Below are positions 24,937 to 43,205 of a DNA stretch of 64,000 nt, piece after piece. Positions within the stretch are counted from its first letter, which is position 1, and the number at the start of each line of letters is the position of its first letter. Source of the stretch: Escherichia coli. Its GTDB lineage: Bacteria > Pseudomonadota > Gammaproteobacteria > Enterobacterales > Enterobacteriaceae. The notes under the pieces are model-generated. The model worked only from the letters and a program-made list of their open reading frames with translations. It did not search any database and had not been told where the DNA came from. The translations under genes were made by a program, and so were the position numbers. The stretch lies in NCBI RefSeq assembly GCF_003019035.1, contig NZ_CP027448.1; one strand, 5' to 3'.

Positions 24937-25623
24937 TTATTTAACACCATAAAATTCACGAATTATACTTAATAGCGAATCTATTTCTCCTTTATATATA
25001 CATGACACTCTGAATAAATCAAAGTGTTCAAAAAACTCTTTTATTTTCCGTTTAACTGGTTTAATTCGATCCTCAGATGCTCTGTCTGTAATACCCAATT
25101 CTCTGGCAATTGTTGCGTGACCAACACCCAGCATATAAAAAGAGAAAACAACCAATGTTCCTGGAGAAAGATCATTCCATATCGTTAATTGACCAGAAGT
25201 ATTTGTATTACTTACACTCTGATTTAACGCAAAAAATGGATAATCAGGAAACGGATTAATTTGCCATAAAACAACAGATTCGTCATTATAAAAAGAAACA
25301 TTCTCCATCCTTATCTGATAGATTTCGCCATGAAAATTAAAACGACGACAAAATGCAGAGCCATGTCCAAGAGCCTGGCATTCCAGTTCAAGTGATGAAA
25401 GAAAAATTTCAACCTGCAGACGTATATAACTCTCTCCGGATAAAGGTTTATCTTCTCTGGAAAAGAGTTCAATAAAAGCCCCATTGGCATAAAGGATTTT
25501 CCGGTTTTTGTTACGGACACAAACCGGAACGGGAGAATTTCTGTAGATATTCTGAACGTTAAGGATGTATTTATTTACAGATTGACTGTTTAGTGGCCTT
25601 TCTCTACGATCCAGCGCACACAT
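24937..25623 (-). CDS. traJ: TraJ transfer activator (start set to MCALDRR..., 228 aa)
   Basis: ORF 24937-25701; ATG 25623 has GGAGG 5 nt upstream; position between traM and traY. Sequence is not the F allele as I recall it. Confidence 0.75.
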
Positions 25624-25692
25624 AGGAACCTCCAGTAAGGATTCTATGGACAGTCGATGCAGGGAGTTACAGCTCCCTGCATCGGCGATTTT
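25618..25692 (+). ncRNA. finP: FinP antisense RNA (candidate), complementary to traJ RBS/start
   Basis: Plus strand opposite traJ leader shows imperfect stem-loop (25622-25648) then perfect hairpin GATGCAGGGAG-TTAC-AGCTCCCTGCATC (25656-25683) followed by T-rich tract: terminator-like, as expected for FinP. Ends approximate. Confidence 0.55.
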
Positions 25693-25812
25693 CAGTTTCA
25701 ATTTTTAACGTGGTATTAACCACATAATTAATATACTAATTATCTGACGTATTGTCATCTTTTTGAATCATAAAAATTCTTATATTTGAACCAACTCAAA
25801 CTTCATTTTCAT

Positions 25813-26196
25813 TTATTCATCATCATTTTTTGGGAAAAACCGGTCCATCTCAACAGACACTTTCTCTCTGATATCGTCAACCATACTGGCATATTCAAAC
25901 TTCGGGTTTCCGGAGACATGAGGACTGAGAGACTCAATACCTAAAATTTTCGCTACTGATGATTGTGTTTTTACAACGCATTCAAGAAGTAATTTATTAA
26001 ACTCAGTCTGATTAAATGCAGACTCTTTACGCTCCATCTGAGCGTCATATACACGGAGCCCTAATTCAAGAAGCATTGAAGCAGTTCCTGAAAGGCTTAT
26101 ATCTTTATCTCTTGCTCCCTCCTGACGACGCTTTTCAACAATCATGTTAATTTTTTCATGAACCTCATTACTGATATACAGATTTACTCTGGCCAT
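25813..26196 (-). CDS. traM: TraM relaxosome accessory protein
   Basis: 127 aa MARVNLYISNEVHEKINMIVEKRRQEGARDKD... closely matches remembered F TraM. Confidence 0.95.
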   Translation of the reverse strand: MARVNLYISNEVHEKINMIVEKRRQEGARDKDISLSGTASMLLELGLRVYDAQMERKESAFNQTEFNKLLLECVVKTQSSVAKILGIESLSPHVSGNPKFEYASMVDDIREKVSVEMDRFFPKNDDE

Positions 26197-26610
26197 AAGA
26201 CAGTACCTTTTAGATTCTGAAATAAGAGTTTTATTTCATCTACTCATAGTATGGTCTGAAAAAATAAGAGCACCCCTAGCAGCGCCCCTAGGGGCATACT
26301 ATAAAAAAACGCACGGCGCTGCTAGGGGCGGCCCTAATATATCCAAATGTTTTTCATGAAAATTGTCAAAACTGACCCTAACAAGGGTCGTCATAGGGTC
26401 GTTATAGGGTCGTCAACGACCCTATTTAATAATGTAAAATAAATTAAAATACATTATTTAGAACATAAACTAATGATTTAAAAAACAAATCAGCAAAAAC
26501 TTGTTTTTGCGTGGGGTGTGGTGCTTTTGGTGGTGAGAATCACCAACCTGTTGAGCCTTTTTGTGGAGTTGGTTAAATTATTTACGGATAAAGTCACCAG
26601 AGGTGGAAAA
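26197..26610 (+). promoter_or_regulatory. oriT: oriT region; nic predicted between 26519 and 26520 on the plus strand
   Basis: Sequence TTTGCGTGGGGTGT/GGTGCTTTTGGTGGTGAGAATCACC matches remembered F nic region; lies between traM and orf169; direct/inverted repeats at 26280-26340 and 26385-26425 are candidate TraM/TraY/IHF sites. Confidence 0.85.
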
Positions 26611-27120
26611 ATGAAAAAATGGATGTTAGCCATCTGCTTGATGTTTATAAATGAGATCTGCCATGCCACTGATTGCTTTGATCTTGCAGGCTGGGATTAC
26701 AAAATAGATCCTGATTTACTGAGAGCAATATCATGGAAAGAATCCCGTTACCGGGTTAATGCCATCGGTATTAATCCGGTAACGGGATATGGCAGCGGAC
26801 TGATGCAGGTAGATTCCCAGCATTTTAACGAACTGGCCCGCTACGGAATTAAGCCAGAACATCTGACAACAGATCCCTGCATGAACATTTATACCGGTGC
26901 TTATTATCTGGCAATAGCATTTAAAAAATGGGGCGTCACCTGGGAGGCCGTTGGTGCATACAATGCAGGATTCAGGAAATCCGAACGCCAGAACCAGAGA
27001 CGTCTTGCCTACGCATCAGAGGTTTACCGGATTTATACCGGGATAAAAAGCAGTAAAGGTATCCGGCTTCCGGCCACGAAGAAATCACTTCCGGAAATTA
27101 ACAGCGTGCAGAACAATTAA
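26611..27120 (+). CDS. Lytic transglycosylase (F orf169 / gene X / R1 gene 19 type)
   Basis: Start set at [10 protein letters not shown]... (169 aa) inside ORF 26518-27120 because the longer ORF would read across nic; signal peptide and ...WKESRY... transglycosylase-like motif. Confidence 0.85.
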
Positions 27121-27365
27121 TCTTACAGATATTGTCAGATACCGGTTATGCCGCAAAAGCGGCATGGAAGGCCACACACAAAAATATCATATGAGTGACA
27201 ATACTGACTGGCCGAAGCCCCGCGAAGAGGTAACCCATCTTATATATACCCGGTAACTGCGCAGCCTCCTGCCAGACCATTTTTCGCGGGCACAATATTT
27301 ACAGACAACCGGAAATCCGGTCGATGAAATTGAGGTATATCAGACGACACAGCAATGCCGAAAAA

Positions 27366-28356: not shown

Positions 28357-28644
28357 TCAGCAGATCGCCCGGATATCGAGGCCGGCACGCTTAATCTGAC
28401 GCAGGAACTGTTTGAAGTGATCGGCTTCCGCAATGTTGATATGGCGGAACTGCTTATCCACACCCTGACTGAGCGCGTAGCTATAACTGAAGGCCATCTT
28501 TTCCGGGTGGCTTTTGCGATATTTTTTCAGCTCAGTCAGGCTGCTGAATTCCAGGACGTCCCACTCTTCCCTGGTGTTTTTTTTCTTCCCGGCAACAAGA
28601 AGCGTGTACGACGCGGTGTTAACGTGGATATTTCGGGTACTCAT
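28357..28644 (-). CDS. DUF905-family small protein (YkfF-like)
   Basis: 95-aa ORF, GAGGAGA RBS upstream of ATG 28644; immediately downstream of repeat copy 1. Confidence 0.65.
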   Translation of the reverse strand: MSTRNIHVNTASYTLLVAGKKKNTREEWDVLEFSSLTELKKYRKSHPEKMAFSYSYALSQGVDKQFRHINIAEADHFKQFLRQIKRAGLDIRAIC

Positions 28645-28666
28645 CCTGCTTTCTCCTCTCTCTGGT

Positions 28667-29314
28667 TTTCAGCCCCCATCATCTTTTGAGTTTCGGGAGC
28701 CGCGGTTTTGACGTTTTGCGGGGACCTGCCTTTTGTTCCCTCCGGTATTCACCATCACCTTTTTGAGAACCTTCGCCGCAAGGGGCATCACTGCCACGGA
28801 CGGAAACGACTGTCCGGGGGCAGACCGCAAAAGTTTTTGCCTGCTTTTGAGCAAAAAGTTTTGCGGGATGTACATTTCACCCCTGGACTGGCGGAGACGG
28901 TTGTGGCTGTATCAGCCCCCGGCGACAGGGGCTTAAACAGGTGAATGGCACCGGACAGAACAACGGGCAGGGACCCGCCGCAACGACGTGAAGCGCGGTT
29001 TGCGAAACGGCGTTGCCCCTTACATCCCGGCGGCCTTTTGCCGGGATGCCGGGAGCGCAGGCCACGGCGCGACAGAGGCGGCGCGACCGGAACGGTCGCT
29101 GCAAGCCCGGGGTTTTCACGCATCGGACCGTAGCGACAGCCCGAAACCGCGCCAGCGGGTTCGGCGGAGACTGGCAGGTGCGCCAGCAGCTGCCTGTCGG
29201 AGTCGGGCCTGACGACCGGATGCCGCCAAGCAGCCGGGAGCCGAAGGTGCGCCCGGCAGATAGGACAACACTGCAGTAGTCAGAATCAGAGCAGAAAGAA
29301 AAAGAGAATAATCA
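28667..29314 (+). repeat. Structured ~0.63-kb leading-region repeat, copy 1 (Frpo/ssi-like candidate single-strand promoter)
   Basis: Near-identical to 34087-34720 and 37421-38033; contains hairpins (28825-28866; CATCCCGGC...GCCGGGATG); ends about 20 bp upstream of the DUF905 start. Confidence 0.75.
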
Positions 29315-29565
29315 CAGGGAAGGTGATGTGATTTCTGACAGGCCATAACCAGAGAAGGCGGGGGAAAAGAACGGGCGCCGCAGGCGCGCGTTCATCCCCG
29401 TTCCTGAAGGGAAACGACCTTCCTGAAGTCAGGTTGTTCATGCCCGTACAACATCAGCAAGGAGAAAGGGGCTACCGGCGAACCAGCAGCCCCTTTATAA
29501 AGGCGCTTCAGTAGTCAGACCAGCATCAGTCCTGAAAAGGCGGGCCTGCGCCCGCCTCCAGGTTG

Positions 29566-29724
29566 CTACTTACCGGATTCGTAAGCCATGAAAGCCGCCA
29601 CCTCCCTGTGTCCGTCTCTGTAACGAATCTCGCACAGCGATTTTCGTGTCAGATAAGTGAATATCAACAGTGTGAGACACACGATCAACACACACCAGAC
29701 AAGGGAACTTCGTGGTAGTTTCAT
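29566..29724 (-). CDS. hok: Hok-family toxin (52 aa), flmA/hok
   Basis: Reverse-complement translates [52 protein letters not shown], the Hok sequence as I recall it; below the 60-aa cutoff so absent from ORF track. Confidence 0.9.
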
Positions 29725-29782
29725 GGCCTTCTTCTCCTTGCGCAAAGCGCGGTAAGAGGCTATCCTGATGTGGACTAGACAT
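29570..29782 (-). CDS. mok: Mok (modulator of killing) overlapping reading frame
   Basis: 70-aa ORF overlapping hok in another frame, the known hok/mok arrangement. Confidence 0.65.
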
Positions 29783-29825
29783 AGGGATGCCTCGTGGTGG
29801 TTAATGAAAATTAACTTACTACGGG
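29758..29825 (+). ncRNA. sok: Sok antisense RNA (candidate)
   Basis: Plus strand opposite mok 5' end, contains hairpin GTTAAT-GAAA-ATTAAC; ends approximate. Confidence 0.45.
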
Positions 29826-30003
29826 GCTATCTTCTTTCTGCCACACAACACGGCAACAAACCACCTTCACGTCATGAGGCAGAAAGCCTCAAGCGCCGGG
29901 CACATCATAGCCCATATACCTGCACGCTGACCACACTCACTTTCCCTGAAAATAATCCGCTCATTCAGACCGTTCACGGGAAATCCGTGTGATTGTTGCC
30001 GCA

Positions 30004-30723
30004 TCACGCTGCCTCCCGGAGTTTGTTCGGCACCATCCACCGCTCCATCTCACGGACAGCGTGACCGGCCTCTCTTGCTGCAAGACTGGCTTCCGCAATA
30101 ACCTGCCAGAACGGCATATCCTGCCACTGCCAGCGTTCCATTCCGGCCAGTGACGGAAAACGCTCGCCCCACTGCCAGAACAGGGTTTCCAGGTCATGCT
30201 CTGCCACCCGGTCACTCCAGCGTGCATGCCAGCTTCCGACTGTTTCCGGCGAATGGAATGCCAGTTCGATTTCAGCCTGAGCGACCAGCGCCTGGTACGC
30301 ACGGGCTTTCTGCTCTGCCTCCCTCGCCTGCTGGCGGCTGTACTTCTGCATGACCAGCGCGGATTTATGGCGACTGCGTTCCCTGACACGAAACCGCACC
30401 GACGGGAACAAGCGCTCTGCTGCATCACCGGGAAGGGGAAGGAGGCAGACCTCGCCCTGTGTTTCAATCAGCACATCGATGGCATACAGCCACTGAAGAC
30501 GGTTGCCGTGCAGTTCTTCTGCGGTCAGGGACGGCATGAAAAATCGCAGGTCAGACAGCGATATCCTGCGGCTTCCGTTCAGACAGCGGAAAAACGCCCC
30601 CGCATACGGATATTCAGCCAGCGTGTTACCCTGATGGCGGCGTTTTTCGGTCTCCGCCACCGCCCGCCATACGGCCTGTTGCTCTGTGCTGAGGGGAACC
30701 AGTGCCTGTGAACGTGCGCTCAT
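30004..30723 (-). CDS. psiA: PsiA (plasmid SOS inhibition protein A)
   Basis: 239 aa; 4-nt overlap with psiB; synteny ssb..psiB-psiA. Confidence 0.88.
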
Positions 30724-31157
30724 GCCTGACCTCCTTCCGCCATCAGGATATGGATGATGTCACTGACGCTGTACCCCTGCGCGTCCAGTGACGCCGCCAG
30801 TGCCAGTGAATGGCTGACGGCTTCCGGTGCAAACCGCCGCTGTACCTGAACCACCGCAAACGGCTCACCACCGGCATTCACCAGAACCAGCACCCAGACC
30901 TGAGAGACATCGCCCGGTGAACATAACGCCAGGTGAAAACGTTCGTGGGCAGGCGTGAAACGGACCTGGACGGGGAAAAATCCGCCAAACTCGCTGCCGT
31001 ACTCGCCGTTCATCGTCCAGTTGTCCGGCGCATCCAGCTCCCGCATCACGGCGTGTGTCAGCTCACGGCGTTCATCACTTCCGGCAGCCCGGATATCTTC
31101 ATATTCCTGTGTGTTCATGGTCTGTAATACATTCAGGGTCAGTTCAGTTTTCATCAC
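30720..31157 (-). CDS. psiB: PsiB (anti-SOS, RecA inhibitor)
   Basis: 145 aa [47 protein letters not shown]...; matches remembered PsiB. Confidence 0.9.
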
Positions 31158-31208
31158 GGTATCTCCCTTGCTGCCGCCCCGTCTCCGGCGGGGCGGTGTG
31201 GTTGTTCA

Positions 31209-33167
31209 TCAGGCGGCATCAGCCAGGTTATCGGTGCGTTCAGTGGCATCCGTCTGTGGGCGTGGTGCACACATCCAGCCAGGCACCCAGCGGTTGTCTT
31301 TCATATGGTGCTCTGCATGTTCAGCCGCATCGCCTTTCTTCATCTTCTCCGCGTCCCGTGCAGCACCGGACAGTCCTGCCTCATTCAGGGCTGCGATAAT
31401 CTGCGGCTTTTTCAGGTGTCCGAAGAAGTTTGCTTTTGTCGGCTGCCACCAGTCGCGCATGTGAAAGCCGATGGCGCTTTCCAGCGAATCCAGCGGACTG
31501 CGTGACGTGTGACCATACTCACGGGTCTGAACACCGTGGATGCTGCATGCAGTGCAGAAACTGAGCAGGGACAACAGAACCTCCTGGCTGAGTGACAGGA
31601 ACGTCGTCATATCCCGTGCCCATCCCTCCGGTAACAGGGCTGCAAGACGGGCTTTTTCTGCCATCATCGCCATGAATGCGGCACCGTCCTTCCCCGATGG
31701 CGCATCGCTGGTCAGCGCATAATGCTCACATTCCAGACGAATTTTTGCGGGATTGCTGTACGCCCCGCTACCAAACACATTCAGGCAGAGCGTCCATGCC
31801 AGCAGTGCCAGGGATTTGTCCGGCTGTTGCATAAGCGCCGCCTGGACTGCCAGCGTGCGCTCTGAGGACATTTTCGTCAGCAGTGGCAGACTGATTTCCT
31901 CCACGGAGGCTTTCTCCTGCACCTGTTCCGTGTGGTCAGCGTCGTCAGCCACATCATCCTCACTGCGTAACTGCACACCACGCTGGACACATACGTTTCC
32001 ATAACGCCAGGACACCACCACGCCACTTCCGGCACGCATCTCCGGCGTCCACGCCCTGACCTTCGCCATGCAGTCAATCAGCTTCATTTCTGCTTCCAGC
32101 AGGTCGGATTCCTCACACTGGTTTTCCAGCGCATCGTAACGTGCCATCAGTTCGTTCAGGCGTTCTTCTTCTGCCTCCGTCAGCACCGCTTCCGGCTCCG
32201 GCAGACTGCGGTATGTTCCGGCATCCTCACGGCACTCACCAACGGCCTCCATGCGTCCGGCACACCATCCCCAGCCCTCGGCTTCCCGAAGGTGTTCAGC
32301 AACAGCCTGGAGTTTTTCCAGCAGGGCAGCATCGAGCGCAACACAGTCCACATAGCCACCCTCGTCGTCGCTGAACAAATCGGTGCGCAGTTCATCTGGC
32401 GAGAAGGCATCAGCCCCCACAAAGCGGAATTTAGTGTTCCCCACCACCGCCACTTCACTTTCGGTCACCAGACGACGAATGGTCTGTACTCCCGGTTTTC
32501 CGCCCCATCCCGACTGACAGGCAGCTTCAAACACCTGCACCTGACGCGCGGTGTCGTTCTCCAGCGCCAGCGCCTGACAGTGCTCTGTGGTGATGCGGTC
32601 TTCTGCCAGCGCATCGAGGATGACAGGCGCAAGGTCTGCCAGTTTCAGCATTCGCTGAACGTGGCGGGGTGAATAGCCCAGCAAATCACCGATTTGTGCA
32701 GGCGTTTTGCCTTCCTGCGCCATTGCACGGAATCCGGCAATCTGTTCGGCAGGGTGCATATCCCGACGATGACCGTTTTCAGTCATTGATGCGGCAGTCG
32801 CCAGTTCCTGCGGAATAACCTTCACGCGGACAGGCCAGTCAGCAGGAAGGATGTTGCGCTCTGCCAGCATGTTGAGTGCTGCCAGTCGGCGACCGCCTGC
32901 GGCGACACCGTAACGGTCACCTGGCAGGGCATGAACAACCAGATTCTGCAGCAGGCCGACGCCCTTAATGGACTCTGCCAGTTCGCTGACGGACTCCGCA
33001 GAATACGGCACCGTGCGCACATTCAGCGGTGACTTAATCAGCGAGGCCAGCGGCACGCTCACTTCAGCCGTCTCCGCCAGCAGGGCCGACAGGACTGTTT
33101 CCTGCGTTTTTGCAGGTTTACGGCTGGATTTACGCTCCGTTTTTACCTTAGACTCTGTAACTGACAT
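31209..33167 (-). CDS. ParB/Srx-domain (ParB-like nuclease) leading-region protein, 652 aa
   Basis: N-terminal ParB-like motif ...LVVHALPGDRYGVAAGGRRLAAL...; start set at ATG 33167 with AAGGAG RBS (ORF track begins 33263). Confidence 0.78.
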   Translation of the reverse strand: MSVTESKVKTERKSSRKPAKTQETVLSALLAETAEVSVPLASLIKSPLNVRTVPYSAESVSELAESIKGVGLLQNLVVHALPGDRYGVAAGGRRLAALNMLAERNILPADWPVRVKVIPQELATAASMTENGHRRDMHPAEQIAGFRAMAQEGKTPAQIGDLLGYSPRHVQRMLKLADLAPVILDALAEDRITTEHCQALALENDTARQVQVFEAACQSGWGGKPGVQTIRRLVTESEVAVVGNTKFRFVGADAFSPDELRTDLFSDDEGGYVDCVALDAALLEKLQAVAEHLREAEGWGWCAGRMEAVGECREDAGTYRSLPEPEAVLTEAEEERLNELMARYDALENQCEESDLLEAEMKLIDCMAKVRAWTPEMRAGSGVVVSWRYGNVCVQRGVQLRSEDDVADDADHTEQVQEKASVEEISLPLLTKMSSERTLAVQAALMQQPDKSLALLAWTLCLNVFGSGAYSNPAKIRLECEHYALTSDAPSGKDGAAFMAMMAEKARLAALLPEGWARDMTTFLSLSQEVLLSLLSFCTACSIHGVQTREYGHTSRSPLDSLESAIGFHMRDWWQPTKANFFGHLKKPQIIAALNEAGLSGAARDAEKMKKGDAAEHAEHHMKDNRWVPGWMCAPRPQTDATERTDNLADAA

Positions 33168-33231
33168 ATATTTCTCCTTTGACCGGGGTGGTTGTATGTC
33201 TGCCGGACGTGATCCCCGTCCGGCACCTCTC

Positions 33232-34720
<1,489 letters not shown>

Positions 34721-34929
34721 GAAAAAGAAGAACAGTAGCAGTAGCAGTAGCAGGAACAACAACATCAGTAACAGACAAATGACAGGCATGAAGAAACAGA
34801 AGCCCCCATCAGAACGTCCGCGTAATGAAAGGGGCGGCGCGTGAGCGCGGCCCCTTTCAGCGCCACCGGCGCGCGGTCTTTTCCCGGCGCGGGCAGACGG
34901 GCATTTATCCTCCCGCCTGCCCGGCGTCT

Positions 34930-35493
34930 TCAGGCACGCAGACGAATAATCATCGTCGGGACATCGGTATAAGCAAACGTGCCGCGCGGCAGCTCCTCGC
35001 GGACGTCAGAAAACGGTAACAGCTTCTCCTGCTGGCGTGGTCCGTTGAGACAGACGGCGACCAGCACGCCACCCGGACGCAACAGGGAAAAGGCCCGCAG
35101 GATATGCCGGATATCCTGCCCGTGGCTGAACGGCGGATTCATGATAACCCGGCTGTAATACTGCGCCGGCTGCCATTCCATGAAGTCGCCACACTGAACC
35201 CTGACACCGTTAAAATTTTCCCGCAGATACCGGACCAGCCCGCTGTTGATTTCCACCGCATCACACATGGCCCCCGGCGCGGTATCCCGAATCGCCCGCA
35301 GTATGGCCCCGGTGCCGGCAGAGGGTTCCAGAATGTGATCACGGTTGCTGATCTCCGCCAGCATCACCAGGCGATCACAGACCGGGGCAGGAGTCACAAA
35401 AAGCTGAGATTCAGCCCGGATTTCAGCAACCGGCGCGGCGTTATCCAGCCTTGCGCGCATCAGCCGGATACGTTCTCTTAACTGACTGTGCAT
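34930..35493 (-). CDS. Small SAM-dependent DNA methyltransferase-like protein (NPPF motif), orphan
   Basis: 187 aa with motif I-like EPSAGTGAIL and motif IV NPPF; no adjacent restriction enzyme. Confidence 0.7.
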   Translation of the reverse strand: MHSQLRERIRLMRARLDNAAPVAEIRAESQLFVTPAPVCDRLVMLAEISNRDHILEPSAGTGAILRAIRDTAPGAMCDAVEINSGLVRYLRENFNGVRVQCGDFMEWQPAQYYSRVIMNPPFSHGQDIRHILRAFSLLRPGGVLVAVCLNGPRQQEKLLPFSDVREELPRGTFAYTDVPTMIIRLRA

Positions 35494-35540
35494 GTCATTA
35501 TCTCCGTCATCCCCCGGGGATTTTCCCGGGGGGATATACC

Positions 35541-36902
35541 TTATTTCTGTGGAATTTCCGTGATTTTCATGTCGGTGATATACACATTCACCAGGCGGAA
35601 ATTATTGTCCATTGTGCGGCGGTAGCGGTATGCCCCGTGGTCTTCTGCTTCTGCCACACTGCGCACGGCCTTACAGTCCCGGGGCAGGGCGGCCCACTGT
35701 GCCTTTGTCATTTCCCGGAAACCTTCCCCCGGATAGTTGACTACCGGCGGACGCTTCGCGGCCTGACTGGCGACGGCAGCCTCTTCTGCCGATGGTGCTT
35801 TGTAGTCCGTGATGCGATCGGGCGTCACTTTCATCGTGCCGCTGTACCCGAGAAAACTGTAATTTGGCGTTGTGACTGAACTCACCACCCCGTTGCTTTT
35901 GTTCACACGGATGATGGTCAGCCACTCGCCCCGGCTGAAAACCTGTCCGCCCGGCTCAAAATCCTGTGTCCGGGTAACCACGCCGCCGCTTTCGTCCAGC
36001 ATGGCACGCTCATAGATCAGGCGGTTCTGATAGTGGTTAACCCAGCGTTGCTGACGCTGGATCTGCCGTTCATGACAGCGGATCGCAATTTCGCGGGCCT
36101 GCTCCGTGGTGATGATGTCATCATCCAGGGCCGACCATAACGATCGACTTCCTTCATACTGGCTTTTTTCTGCCGGGCGCGGATACGTATCCAGCGGGAA
36201 ACAGGCGCTAATATGGTCATGACTGCTGATGAGTTTTGCCATATTCAGATCCAGCGATTCAGCCCGCCACATCGTCAGATATTTCTGCGACTGTGCGATG
36301 GTCTTTTCAGCCTTGCGCAAATCAGCTTCGATTTTTTTGATACGACGCCAGCGAACGTCCGGACGTTCTTTATACTTCGCGTGAAGCAGTGCCGACCGCG
36401 CGCGTTCTTCCCAGTATTCCGCACGTTCAAAGAGCATCACGGCACGTTTCATGCCGTTTTCAATACGCTGCGCATCACGACGGGCGCGGCGTTCGCTGTG
36501 ATGCCCCACAAGAATGGGCTGACCGGGCGGGATCATCGCGGCCAGTCTTTCCACTTCATCAAGTGCCTGTGCGGATTCACTGGCCCGCTTTCCGCTGTAT
36601 CCGGTAAACCGCTCCGCCCGTGCTTCCTGACGTTCAGCGAGCGTGCTGTCTTCATCCTCAATCTCTCCGGCAAGTGAGAGGAGCACGTCTTCCCGGCCCG
36701 GTGTCCAGGCTGGCGCGACAAACAGCGCCTGTTTGGGTGCCCAGCGAAAACCGGCATCATGCACTTTTTTATACGTCTCCGGGTCGAGGCGTGACGCGGC
36801 ATACAGGCGCAGTTTGTTGTCATCCGGTGAGTAGGTCGCGCGGTACATCTGCACAGGGCTGGCGGCTTCCGGGGCGGTCATGGTGATGGCTGCTAATGTC
36901 AT
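35541..36902 (-). CDS. Conserved leading-region protein (DUF3560-like, 453 aa)
   Basis: Long ORF, charged/helical middle region; family name from memory, unverified. Confidence 0.6.
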   Translation of the reverse strand: MTLAAITMTAPEAASPVQMYRATYSPDDNKLRLYAASRLDPETYKKVHDAGFRWAPKQALFVAPAWTPGREDVLLSLAGEIEDEDSTLAERQEARAERFTGYSGKRASESAQALDEVERLAAMIPPGQPILVGHHSERRARRDAQRIENGMKRAVMLFERAEYWEERARSALLHAKYKERPDVRWRRIKKIEADLRKAEKTIAQSQKYLTMWRAESLDLNMAKLISSHDHISACFPLDTYPRPAEKSQYEGSRSLWSALDDDIITTEQAREIAIRCHERQIQRQQRWVNHYQNRLIYERAMLDESGGVVTRTQDFEPGGQVFSRGEWLTIIRVNKSNGVVSSVTTPNYSFLGYSGTMKVTPDRITDYKAPSAEEAAVASQAAKRPPVVNYPGEGFREMTKAQWAALPRDCKAVRSVAEAEDHGAYRYRRTMDNNFRLVNVYITDMKITEIPQK

Positions 36903-36953
36903 AAAATGTTCTCCTTCCGTCTGTTGCCGCCCCTCGCGGGGCGGCTCACCTCA

Positions 36954-37184
36954 TCAGTTAAAAGCGCGTTTCAGTTCGAGTGTGCGGAGCACCTGCCCGA
37001 AGGCCGTGTTTTTCATGGCGGGGATGTGTACACCACGCCCCCGGTGAAAACTCCGGGCTATGTGTCGCCCGAAGGCTTTCAGCACGGGGTCAATTTCCGG
37101 CGCGGGGATGTCTTCGCGTCTGAAACGGGGATGACGGCGGGGCTTTACAGCCGCTGCGGAAGGTGAAACAATACTTACCGTCAT
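36954..37184 (-). CDS. Small basic hypothetical protein (76 aa)
   Basis: AAGGAG RBS 8 nt upstream of ATG 37184; first ORF downstream of repeat copy 3. Confidence 0.45.
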   Translation of the reverse strand: MTVSIVSPSAAAVKPRRHPRFRREDIPAPEIDPVLKAFGRHIARSFHRGRGVHIPAMKNTAFGQVLRTLELKRAFN

Positions 37185-37420
37185 AAATGAAACTCCTTAT
37201 GACTGTTGAATGGAACCGCAGAAACTGCTCGAACAGTTTTTGCGGTGTGGATTAAGCAGGTCCTCCCCGGCCTGCTTTTTTCATATCTGCGTCTGACGTT
37301 CTCCGGTGTTTTCCTCCTTCTGTTCCTGCGTTCTCATTACCTGCCAGCCGGATGACTGACAGAACAAATAAATGCGTATTGCCGGAGCCTGAAATAAATC
37401 CTGATTTTTAAAGAACATCA

Positions 37421-38033
37421 CCCGTTGAGTTTCGGGAGCCGCGGTTTTGACGTTTCGCGGGAACCTGCTGCTGTATTCCCTGTGGTATGAACTTCACCCG
37501 TTTGAGAACCTTCGCCGCAAGGGGCATCACTGCCACGGCCTGACGCACCTGTCCTGGGCAGAACGCAAAATTTTTTACCGGGTTTGGGGTAAAAAATTTT
37601 GTGGGCTGTTCATTTACCCTGGACAGTCAGTGCGGCAGGTTGTGGCTGTATCAGCCCCCGGCGACAGGGACTCATACGGGTGTGTGGCACCCGGCAGGCA
37701 ATGAGCAGGGACCCGCCGCAACGACGGAGAGCGCGTGCGCGAAACGGCGTTGCCCCTTACATCCCGGCGGCCTTTTGCCGGGATGCCAGGAGCGCAGGCC
37801 ACGGCGCGACAGAGGCGGCGCGACCGGAACGGTCGCTGCAAGCCAGGGGGTTTCACGCATCGGACCGTAGCGGCAGCCCGAAACCGCGCCAGCGGGTTCG
37901 GCGGAGACTGGCAGGTGCGCCAGCAGCTGCCTGTCGGAGTCGGGCCTGACGACCGGATGCCGCCAGGCAGCCGGGAGCCGAAGGTGCGCCCGGCAGACAG
38001 AACAACACTGCAGTAGTCAGAATCAGAGCAGCA
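37421..38033 (+). repeat. Structured leading-region repeat, copy 3 (Frpo/ssi-like), diverged 5' part
   Basis: 3' two-thirds nearly identical to copies 1 and 2; 5' part diverged but hairpin retained with compensatory changes (37563-37603). Confidence 0.75.
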
Positions 38034-38224
38034 GATAAAGGAACAACAACAACATCAGGAACAGTTCCACAACATAAGAAAGAAACACTCCTGAGTCAGA
38101 CACATCACAGACGGGAAGGGTAACGGGCGACGCGCCAGCGTGGCCCGCTTCCCTTCCGGCAGGCGTCAGCCTGCCAGGGGTTTTCGCGCGGGCTGACAGG
38201 CGGCCTCCACCGCCTGCCCCTGTA

Positions 38225-39307: not shown

Positions 39308-39719
39308 GGGATTTCCTCCGTTGTTCACATATTCCGCGACACCGGGCGGTGCCGTGCCTCCATAAAAGCCGGGCGATAAGGCGGGGATGCACAGGGCGCA
39401 AGGGAAGCCGCAGCCTGACGCACACGGCTGACGGGAGTTGGAGGGGGAGACCGCGAAATCTGAGCGGGTGAACGACCGGAAAATCACGGCAGACGGGAAG
39501 GAGGGACCGGGTGACCGCAGCGTTCATTTTACCCTTGCATCCCCGCCAGCCCGGCTAAGATGGAGGCACGGCACAGCCCGCACACGACACGGTGGCCACA
39601 TAACTGAAAACCCACAAGGCCATGCCTGCATGGCCGGGTAAAGCGGAGCCGGCGGCGACTTCCTTTGTGCTCTGTCCGGGGACCGGCAGAAAAAAAAGCG
39701 GGGATTTTCCCCGCCATCA

Positions 39720-41895: not shown

Positions 41896-42278
41896 AACAA
41901 CGCTCCTTCTTTCACAGAGGGCACCGGGAGGGCCCCCTGTGGTGCCCGTTCCCCGCTGCCTGTGGGCTGTTCACCGCGTCCGGTAACTGGTCAGGCCGAC
42001 CGTGGAATACCGCAGCCGTCGTCTTTTTGACGGCAAGGTTATGCCGCGAAAGCGGCTTGAAGGGCGTTCATCAGAAAAGGGCGACGGGCTGGCGTACACT
42101 GTCACCGACGCCAGCCGGGAGCGGTAAAAGCGACCGTTCCGTGCCCGCCGGACGCGGGACACTGACCACAGGCAGCGTTCCTGCCGCGCCGCGTCAGCCG
42201 GCGCAGTAAAAAGAGGAGCACGGCGACATCCTTTGTCGGAAAAGAAACGGGCGGTTGCCCGCCCGTCTCCGTCATACT

Positions 42279-43205
42279 TCATCCGCCATAATGCGCCACA
42301 TTGTCGACTATCCACGCAGGTCCGGTGACCTCCGGCAGCTCATCGTCATCTGTCGGGGAAGACCATTCCTGTTCCCCCCACAGAACATCAACAAGCTCTC
42401 CACGCTCATATCGCTGCCAGCCACAGAAATTGCAGCCCTGTTCGGCATACCAGTGCTCCAGCGTGCAGCCGAAACGGCGGCTTAATTCTGCAACAACGTC
42501 GCTTTCCGGCTGACACCACGGCGTGTCAAAATCCACCTGAATGAAGTTTTCTCCCTGACGGCCGATATTCAGGTCATACCCACAAGGCCACTTCACGCCA
42601 TACCGTTCCGTATACCAGTGATATGCAGAAGGAACACCGTTCAGAACACCACCGTTAAAGCCGTTCACTTCAACATCCAGGCGGGTCGGCAGAACCGTCA
42701 GCAGGTCAAACGGCATGGTTTTTTCCGGCACTACGTTGTCACACAGACGGTTCCACCACACCGATACATCCTCGTTACTCCAGAAGCCACACCAGTCACC
42801 TCTTTTTGCGGTGAAAAGTGCGGTGATGGTATCCCTGACATCGTCCGGTAATCCTTCCCAGCGACGCTGTCCAGTACCGCTCTGCAGCCAGAGTTCATGC
42901 AGCATCAGGCAGTTTTGCTCATCCAGCAGTACACCGTCCTGCAGATATGTCAGCCAGCGGGTGAACGCGATATTCTCCGGCGATACAACGCCACGCCCGG
43001 CAGCCGTCAGTCCGGGGCATGGTTCAAACCGCACATCTTCAGTGGTCTGCAGAAGTCCGGCACTTCCGGCCAGAAACAGCTGAATACCTTCATTTGTGGC
43101 GCGGCGATAAAGCGGTGTGACTGCGCCGCTGGCCAGTCGTTTAATCTCAGCGATCTGTGCCGGTTCACCAGAAAAATACATACGATTCGAGCACCAGTTT
43201 GGCAT
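42279..43205 (-). CDS. Conserved leading-region protein with MPNWCxN N-terminus (DUF1281/Api92-like as recalled), 308 aa
   Basis: ATG 43205 preceded by GAGGAGA; track ORF starts 43250. Family name from memory. Confidence 0.65.
   Translation of the reverse strand: MPNWCSNRMYFSGEPAQIAEIKRLASGAVTPLYRRATNEGIQLFLAGSAGLLQTTEDVRFEPCPGLTAAGRGVVSPENIAFTRWLTYLQDGVLLDEQNCLMLHELWLQSGTGQRRWEGLPDDVRDTITALFTAKRGDWCGFWSNEDVSVWWNRLCDNVVPEKTMPFDLLTVLPTRLDVEVNGFNGGVLNGVPSAYHWYTERYGVKWPCGYDLNIGRQGENFIQVDFDTPWCQPESDVVAELSRRFGCTLEHWYAEQGCNFCGWQRYERGELVDVLWGEQEWSSPTDDDELPEVTGPAWIVDNVAHYGG

Follow-up and report, generated by a model that had tools for sequence, protein, structure and literature searches.

Three repeats in the leading region of an IncF-type Escherichia coli plasmid are very probably single-stranded DNA promoter units, each adjoined by a conserved structured module

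We analyzed three direct repeats of about 0.65 kb (copies A, B and C) in a 64,000-nucleotide (nt) stretch of Escherichia coli DNA (contig NZ_CP027448.1, assembly GCF_003019035.1; hereafter, the window), which is the leading region of an IncF-type plasmid. We hold with high confidence that each repeat is one Frpo/ssi class 1 single-stranded DNA (ssDNA) promoter unit of F-like and I-like conjugative plasmids. All three copies show homology to the F element ssiD, the appropriate strand geometry, a strand-biased hairpin fold and a leading operon below. A first-pass annotation, made from the letters of the sequence, had proposed a Frpo/ssi-type arrangement here, and these four lines of evidence support that proposal. 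Beside the promoter hairpin, each unit carries a second conserved fold, the distal module, which we describe below.

The copies extend over 28665-29314 (A), 34088-34740 (B) and 37404-38050 (C). A repeat search resolved them into two families, the first at 28665-28964, 34088-34387 and 37404-37703 (100, 95 and 67% identity) and the second at 29003-29302, 34426-34725 and 37740-38039 (97, 100 and 97% identity), and in a MAFFT alignment the three copies are alike without a break over about 640 columns. The part homologous to ssiD is 95.4% identical between A and B and 79.2% identical between A and C and between B and C. The distal 292 nt (29023-29314 in A) are 94.5 to 96.2% identical between copies, and a 180-nt core within them (29076-29255 in A) is 97.8 to 99.4% identical. 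A chance origin is impossible for repeats of such length and identity. The repeat search, the alignment and the segment identities thus confirm the earlier description of three copies with near-identical plus-strand 3' parts; the near-identity is real, but it belongs to the gene-distal half, which lies outside the characterized ssiD/Frpo sequence and is not the promoter hairpin.

Five reference Frpo/ssi sequences were taken from Samuel et al. 2024 (Supplementary file 4), with F ssiD as D90178 (351 nt). By blastn, F ssiD aligned end to end with copy A (28673-29022, 95.7% identity) and copy B (34096-34445, 94.9%), and its nt 17-351 aligned with copy C (37427-37759, 78.2% over 335 nt); E-values for the three copies ranged from 5e-161 to 2e-70. 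Homology to the F Frpo/ssi sequences, which had been expected from the arrangement, is borne out by these alignments. Copy C is also 91.8% identical to the published Frpo2 construct. ColIb-P9 ssi1-3 aligned at the apex only (28810-28922 and the equivalent positions, 75 to 81% identity), apart from a short piece at 29047-29075. The promoter hairpins are as follows.

28673-29062, plus strand: promoter hairpin of copy A, homologue of F Frpo1/ssiD (ssp1a), from 95.7% identity and the ssDNA fold
34096-34485, plus strand: promoter hairpin of copy B, Frpo2/ssp1b homologue by position (94.9% identity; fold z = -9.46)
37427-37799, plus strand: promoter hairpin of copy C, a divergent variant with an F Frpo2-type apex (fold z = -8.28)

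Folded as ssDNA, the plus strand of each unit had a minimum free energy of -180 to -189 kcal/mol, compared with about -134 to -138 kcal/mol for shuffled sequences (z = -8.3 to -9.5 for the three units; 0 shuffles as good). The main feature of each fold is one imperfect hairpin of about 370 nt with mismatches and bulges, so that a stable hairpin, as required at first pass, is present in each copy. In copy A, the apex is an AT-rich palindrome (GCAAAAGTTTTTGCC ... GCAAAAAGTTTTGC, 28827-28867), and past the apex the 3' arm carries a conserved bulge of 8 to 9 nt (28869-28878 in copy A). The plus-strand fold is 8 to 20 kcal/mol more stable than that of its complement, with the hairpin alone accounting for a difference of 8 to 13 kcal/mol. 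The consensus hairpin of 16 homologues (seven genera and a metagenome) has several invariant G·T pairs on the plus strand together with compensatory changes, as expected if the transferred strand is the strand that folds. Hairpins from Citrobacter, Salmonella (copy 4) and an insect metagenome have a short GC hairpin (GCGCGGTTTACCGCG) in place of the AT-rich apex and retain the CATTTACCCTGGA motif after it; the AT-rich palindrome is therefore not universal to the class 1 promoter.

The transferred strand was assigned from the F nic sequence GTGGGGTGTGGTGCTTT, which has a single exact occurrence in the window, flanked by traM (25813-26196, minus strand) and the SLT/orf169 gene.

26511-26527, plus strand: F-type oriT nic motif GTGGGGTGT/GGTGCTTT, exact match

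From the biochemistry of F TraI, we take the nick to fall after GTGT, with the 5' end leading, which places the predicted nick at 26519/26520. With the motif in this orientation, it is the plus strand that is transferred, the higher coordinates going in first. The leading genes lie on the minus strand and so have the plus strand as their template. This agrees with the orientation given in the first-pass annotation. The repeats lie 2.1 to 11.5 kb from the nic motif on its leading side.

Just to the left of each copy, a minus-strand gene starts, at 28644 (A), 34066 (B) and 37184 (C), the gap between copy C and its gene being about 230 nt.

28357-28644, minus strand: 95-amino-acid ygeA homologue, first gene below copy A, 97% identical to the F open reading frame (ORF) below Frpo1
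33527-34066, minus strand: plasmid ssb, first gene below copy B, from its translation and the annotation of NZ_CP032799.1
36954-37184, minus strand: 76-amino-acid ORF, first gene below copy C, from the ORF list and annotation

The genes below copies B and C are those named at first pass, by translation and annotation for ssb and by the ORF list and annotation for the 76-amino-acid ORF. The gene below copy A had been called DUF905; it has no significant Pfam match, DUF905 included, and is the ygeA homologue. DUF905 itself is the small gene that separates ssb from the ParB-like gene. After ssb come DUF905, the ParB-like gene, psiB and psiA; after the 76-amino-acid ORF come DUF3560 and a class I SAM methyltransferase gene. 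The 76-amino-acid ORF has a weak Pfam match to HU-CCDC81_euk_1 (E = 7e-4), which hints at a small DNA-binding protein. Between the start of this ORF and copy C, Rfam places AS-pc01, the antisense RNA of pHK01 (37179-37280, plus strand, 89.7 bits, above the gathering threshold), in a position antisense to the expected 5' untranslated region of the copy C transcript.

The cloned F ssiD hairpin has already been shown to have promoter activity on ssDNA. For the F homologue, RNA polymerase-dependent transcription and priming on ssDNA were reportedly described by Masai and Arai in 1997. F has Frpo1 in front of ygeA and, about 5 kb away across flm/hok, the 92% identical Frpo2 in front of ssb; early expression in transconjugants is lost when either is deleted (PMC9849209). 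By analogy, the plus strand of the present plasmid would be nicked at the predicted site during conjugation and enter the recipient 5' end first. The gene-proximal 370 nt or so of each single-stranded unit would then snap into the long imperfect hairpin, whose stem would offer sigma-70 RNA polymerase a duplex promoter that is not present in the ordinary double-stranded sequence. The polymerase would copy the plus strand toward oriT, and each copy would drive early, short-lived expression of one operon. Copy A would serve ygeA with the genes that follow it, copy B would serve ssb, DUF905, the parB-like gene, psiB and psiA, and copy C would serve the 76-amino-acid ORF, DUF3560 and the methyltransferase gene. 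The same transcripts could prime complementary-strand synthesis, and conversion to duplex would remove the hairpin and turn the promoter off.

Promoter scans of the repeats found no linear sigma-70 consensus on either strand, in keeping with an element inactive in double-stranded form. A single -35/-10-like pair has a conserved position, namely TTGAGA-N16-18-(C/T)ATCAC or GTAAAC, on the 5' arm of 15 of the 16 homologues (TTGAGA-N17-CATCAC/TATCAC in copies A and B).

Copy A, 5' arm: candidate -35 box TTGAGA at 28763-28768; candidate -10 box CATCAC at 28786-28791
Copy B, 5' arm: candidate -35 box at 34186-34191; candidate -10 box TATCAC at 34209-34214
Copy C, 5' arm: candidate -35 box at 37502-37507; candidate -10 box at 37525-37530

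Opposite these boxes, the 3' arm has the poorer TTTAAG...TGATAC, with an internal loop at the -10 position; in the modeled hairpin, this poorer arm would explain the specificity for single strands.

Several points weigh against reading the repeats as promoter units. The part best conserved between the copies differs from the part shown to be a promoter. Copy C is 78% identical to ssiD and stands about 230 nt from its ORF with AS-pc01 in between. The -35 and -10 boxes are not fixed, the conserved pair being candidates only, and the Frpo2-acrIIA4 construct lacks the complement of the candidate -35 box yet is published as working. Finally, we infer transcription, priming and shut-off of these three copies from work on F and IncI1.

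A different reading takes the repeats for a paralogous gene family that codes for small proteins. Annotation pipelines, including PGAP, do call ORFs inside the repeats (e.g., 76 amino acids at 29116-29346 and 68 amino acids at 28669-28875, both on the minus strand), and some records label internal ORFs "single-stranded DNA-binding protein (x3)." However, the strand and frame of the annotated ORFs differ between the three copies; no open frame is kept across the hairpin or module homologues, whose lengths differ by non-multiples of 3 (155 to 184 nt for the module); and a search of the six ORFs inside the repeats against NCBIfam returned no match. The substitutions are instead compensatory for base pairing, and chance alone would be expected to give open frames at 72% G+C. 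We therefore regard a protein-coding role as almost certainly wrong, in agreement with the earlier judgment that these ORFs are not coding. Public records list "hypothetical protein" ORFs at 28669-28875, 29116-29346 and 34539-34778 (all minus strand) and at 37599-37949 (plus strand); such inconsistent calls are probably annotation artifacts that have spread through the databases.

Plasmid F is among the closest known systems. Its Frpo1 and Frpo2 resemble copies A and B in sequence (95% over the 351-nt ssiD), in forming the same long hairpin and in lying on the same strand relative to nic, and they too stand upstream of ygeA and ssb with hok/sok between. F differs in having no third copy and no operon below copy C. 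F Frpo2 (NC_002483, 11839-12643) follows copy B (and A) in its gene-proximal 130 nt or so, and copy C at the apex, along most of the 3' arm and in the upstream flank; the 3.3-kb methyltransferase-DUF3560-76-amino-acid-ORF operon that stands between B and C is missing from F. Judged from these sequence matches, F Frpo2 looks like the product of a crossover between B and C, and the best match of the published Frpo2 construct, to copy C, agrees with this. An analogous R1/R3 hybrid repeat was described in an IncI plasmid by Venturini et al. (PMC3817090), and Couturier et al. point out that hok/flm between Frpo1 and Frpo2 should guard against deletion of the A x B type (PMC9849209).

A rival reading, raised by these mosaics, is that the repeats are dispersed homologous sequences without a promoter role: chiefly substrates or scars of recombination, which gene conversion keeps alike and which shuffle or delete cassettes of the leading region. 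Between copies, the core reaches 98 to 99% identity, against hairpin differences of up to 21%, and the very high identity of the module fits gene conversion; the F Frpo2 mosaic, with its missing 3.3-kb operon, and the similar IncI hybrid (PMC3817090) point the same way. Yet recombination explains the similarity of the copies and not the conserved hairpin, the strand-biased G·T pairs or the compensatory changes across genera, nor does it account for the constant placement of the copies ahead of operons on the template strand. Deletion of the F homologues, moreover, abolishes early expression (PMC9849209). As a full account of the repeats, recombination is very improbable; its role is real but additional to the promoter role.

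The gene-distal half of each unit contains a conserved fold of its own. We aligned 17 copies of this module and built a covariance model (R1) on 12 of them. R1 found 37 matches in 19 sources, exactly three of them in the window and all three on the plus strand.

29076-29255, plus strand: module of copy A (R1, 146 bits)
34499-34678, plus strand: module of copy B (R1, 148.7 bits)
37813-37992, plus strand: module of copy C (R1, 144.2 bits)

In copy A, the module consists of a small hairpin (29083-29099) and a four-helix core closed by a CGCATC/GGTGCG helix. The 17-copy alignment shows long invariant stretches between covarying helices, among them CATC.GAC..TAG, GGCGGAG, CGGAGT, GACGAC and GGAGCCGAAGG. 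When R1 was fitted to all 37 copies, 92.6% of cells were paired, compared with 30 to 41% when the partners were slid out of register, with 37 double-change pairs compared with 7 to 14 and a covariation of 0.284 compared with at most 0.067. A structure-blind MAFFT alignment of the 12 copies gave a similar outcome: 90.9% of cells paired (29 to 47% slid), 19 double-change pairs (3 to 7 slid) and a covariation of 0.229 (at most 0.084 slid). Module cells include 105 G·T or T·G against 22 A·C or C·A, and the consensus energy is better on the plus strand than on the minus strand, indicating that the fold belongs to the transferred strand or to a plus-sense RNA. A minus-strand fold in the sense of the mRNA was considered and is disfavored by the same count and by its poorer consensus energy. 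The module is thus a strand-specific, multi-helix conserved structured element with compensatory changes.

The module is widely distributed on plasmids. Its region is 92 to 97% identical to that of an IncI-gamma/K1 (MOBP, MPF_I) plasmid with hairpins that can hardly be aligned to those of the window, and it is detected at 74 to 80% identity in Salmonella, Enterobacter, Citrobacter and Erwiniaceae plasmids with hairpins that BLAST misses. Searches from the Salmonella unit and from the Erwiniaceae module each returned at least 5000 records, from Klebsiella, Escherichia, Enterobacter, Salmonella, Serratia, Citrobacter, Raoultella, Pantoea, Yersinia and others. A scan of genome contigs for GACCGGAACGGTCGCNGCAAGCC yielded 10 loci only, so the diversity of the module is drawn from the plasmid collection. 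Overall, the module occurs on Escherichia, Salmonella, Klebsiella, Enterobacter, Citrobacter, Yokenella, Phytobacter and Erwiniaceae plasmids of both MOBF and MOBP types. In every annotated locus, the R1 matches lie on the template strand of the leading genes, about 245 to 630 nt upstream of the operon start.

Rfam searches gave no family for the module (no match inside the repeats at E ≤ 1 over 25 kb; only noise at E ≤ 10 over 701 nt), and the phage collection gave no match. The available Frpo/ssi literature, largely based on F or on hairpin mining, does not describe it, and that basis is probably the reason for the silence. In F (NC_002483), the sequence in common with the window runs through the hairpin and the first small distal hairpin (GCGACCGGAACGGTCGC) of both Frpo units and then gives way to a different one; for these two units, R1 returned only 43 bits (106 nt) and 35 bits (49 nt). 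Since F lacks the core of the module, the core is not required for basic Frpo activity.

The stability of the module with DNA parameters is modest (z = -3.25 in the window and -0.76 in the Salmonella copy), which weakens the idea that it acts as a thermodynamic roadblock. What it conserves is a particular shape with many fixed unpaired bases, a pattern that speaks for specific recognition and against a bulk barrier. We tentatively view the module as an accessory cis element of the unit, recognized as folded ssDNA. It may be a distinct, previously undescribed element of class 1 units, recognized in this form by a host or plasmid factor and tuning how long the neighboring promoter remains single-stranded and active, although we put the chance of this at somewhat less than even. 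It could do so by insulating the hairpin from replication or transcription that approaches from upstream.

The plus-strand fold would also be seen if the module were a structured plus-sense RNA gene, antisense to the leading operons and transcribed from duplex DNA or from the strand retained in the donor, and not a folded ssDNA element. The excess of G·T over A·C cells suits such a gene, as do the RNA-like multi-helix junction with its many invariant unpaired bases, the conserved G·A oppositions seen by eye at two neighboring positions of helix P5, the unremarkable DNA-parameter stability of the divergent copy, the known plus-strand small RNA nearby (AS-pc01) and the T-rich runs that follow several non-E. 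coli modules on the plus strand. On the other hand, no sigma-70-like promoter precedes the module on the plus strand, no T-run terminator follows it in the three copies of the window, and neither an Rfam family nor, in the available literature, an antisense transcript is on record; its fixed place beside an ssDNA promoter on the transferred strand fits a role in ssDNA. We consider an RNA gene unlikely.

The module could alternatively be a priming signal (ssi) for complementary-strand synthesis through primase or PriA. It is folded ssDNA on the entering strand with an invariant CTG, and the leading region holds another ssi, a homologue of F ssiE (27115-27303). This role appears quite unlikely, however: the screens for ssi in F that gave ssiD confined it to the hairpin, F manages conversion with no core module, no similarity to phage origins was found, and a primer laid down at the module would at once convert and silence the adjoining promoter.

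Beyond the module, at the far edge of the units (29270-29314, 34690-34745 and 38005-38050), the plus strand has a purine-rich tract that contains short tandem repeats: CAGTAG units in copy B, and (GGAACA)n in copies from Salmonella and Citrobacter. For the tract of copy A, the predicted pairing partner is a pyrimidine-rich sequence, the complement of the ribosome-binding region of the downstream gene. Just upstream of copy A lies a terminator-like GC hairpin with a T-run (29375-29387, minus strand), the only such site that the terminator scan returned, and a short hairpin can be seen by eye in the alignment at the corresponding flank of copies B and C; the preceding operon thus seems to stop short of the distal module.

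A 10.5-kb stretch that includes the repeats matched at least 5000 records in the plasmid collection, mostly conjugative MOBF/MPF_F plasmids and usually at three places per record; the best-matching records had 100% coverage at 98.4% identity. An annotated twin, NZ_CP032799.1 (98.4% identical), is typed IncFIA, MOBF and MPF_F, and its gene order is traM, SLT, DUF932, the 95-amino-acid ORF, copy A, hok, psiB, the ParB-like gene, DUF905, ssb, copy B, the SAM methyltransferase gene, DUF3560, the 76-amino-acid ORF, copy C, DUF1380 and an antirestriction gene. As in related loci, hok and psiB are separated by psiA (30004-30723). Rfam matches to FinP and the traJ 5' untranslated region fall at 25617-25725, and one to sok at 29722-29898. 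The F ssiE (D90180) homologue mentioned above, identified by blastn at 97% identity, lies between the SLT gene and DUF932.

Among other plasmids, ColIb-P9/IncI1 has in its ssi1-3 three dispersed copies that likewise stand upstream of leading operons on the template strand, with the same apex motif: an AT-rich palindrome, then the GT.CAT.T bulge, then CCCCTGGAC. It differs in that the lower stem cannot be aligned, only about 90 to 110 nt of the apex matching at 75 to 81%, and in that ardA lies downstream in IncI1. The IncI-gamma/K1 plasmid shares the same distal module at 92 to 97% identity. The ColIb-P9 ssi1-3 elements are class 1 ssDNA promoters (Wen 2025), reportedly treated earlier by Bates in 1999 and Nasim in 2004. 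Start sites of the IncI1 class 1 hairpins have been placed by 5' rapid amplification of cDNA ends (PMC12672017), and three Frpo-containing repeats are known from IncI leading regions (PMC3817090).

The class 2 (ssp2, "Frpo3") and class 3 elements of F and pESBL are also hairpin promoters of the transferred strand in the same region, but they have no sequence similarity to the three repeats, and R1 finds no module there. A second type of long ssDNA hairpin is present in the window at 39330-39590 (plus strand, z = -4.5), upstream of the antirestriction gene; by eye, it has long stretches in common with the "Frpo' 4" candidate of Samuel 2024, and it is probably the class 2/ssp2 promoter and roadblock of F and pESBL. 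Replication-roadblock activity has been demonstrated for ssp2 (bioRxiv 10.64898/2026.01.09.698686). A class-3-type hairpin considered at 42270-42560 was rejected, as this segment is not structured (z = -0.48). The sso of rolling-circle plasmids, called functionally comparable in reviews (PMC7690428), is likewise folded ssDNA recognized by host RNA polymerase to make a primer; it has no sequence relationship to the repeats and serves replication only, not gene expression.

The three repeats are thus of an already known element type that occurs in thousands of sequenced plasmids and is under active study, with 13,089 Frpo homologues counted in 6,006 conjugative elements (PMC11541004). Frpo/ssi promoters give the burst of anti-SOS, ssb and anti-restriction expression by which resistance plasmids establish themselves in new hosts, and the repeats that contain them are documented as recombination points that reshape the gene content of leading regions. 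For annotation, the ORFs called inside such repeats in thousands of records are almost certainly spurious. Natural IncFII- and IncI-type plasmids carry a conserved folded module beside each promoter, and the model plasmid F lacks its core. If the module modulates promoter lifetime or strand conversion, work confined to F would have missed part of the program by which these plasmids become established.

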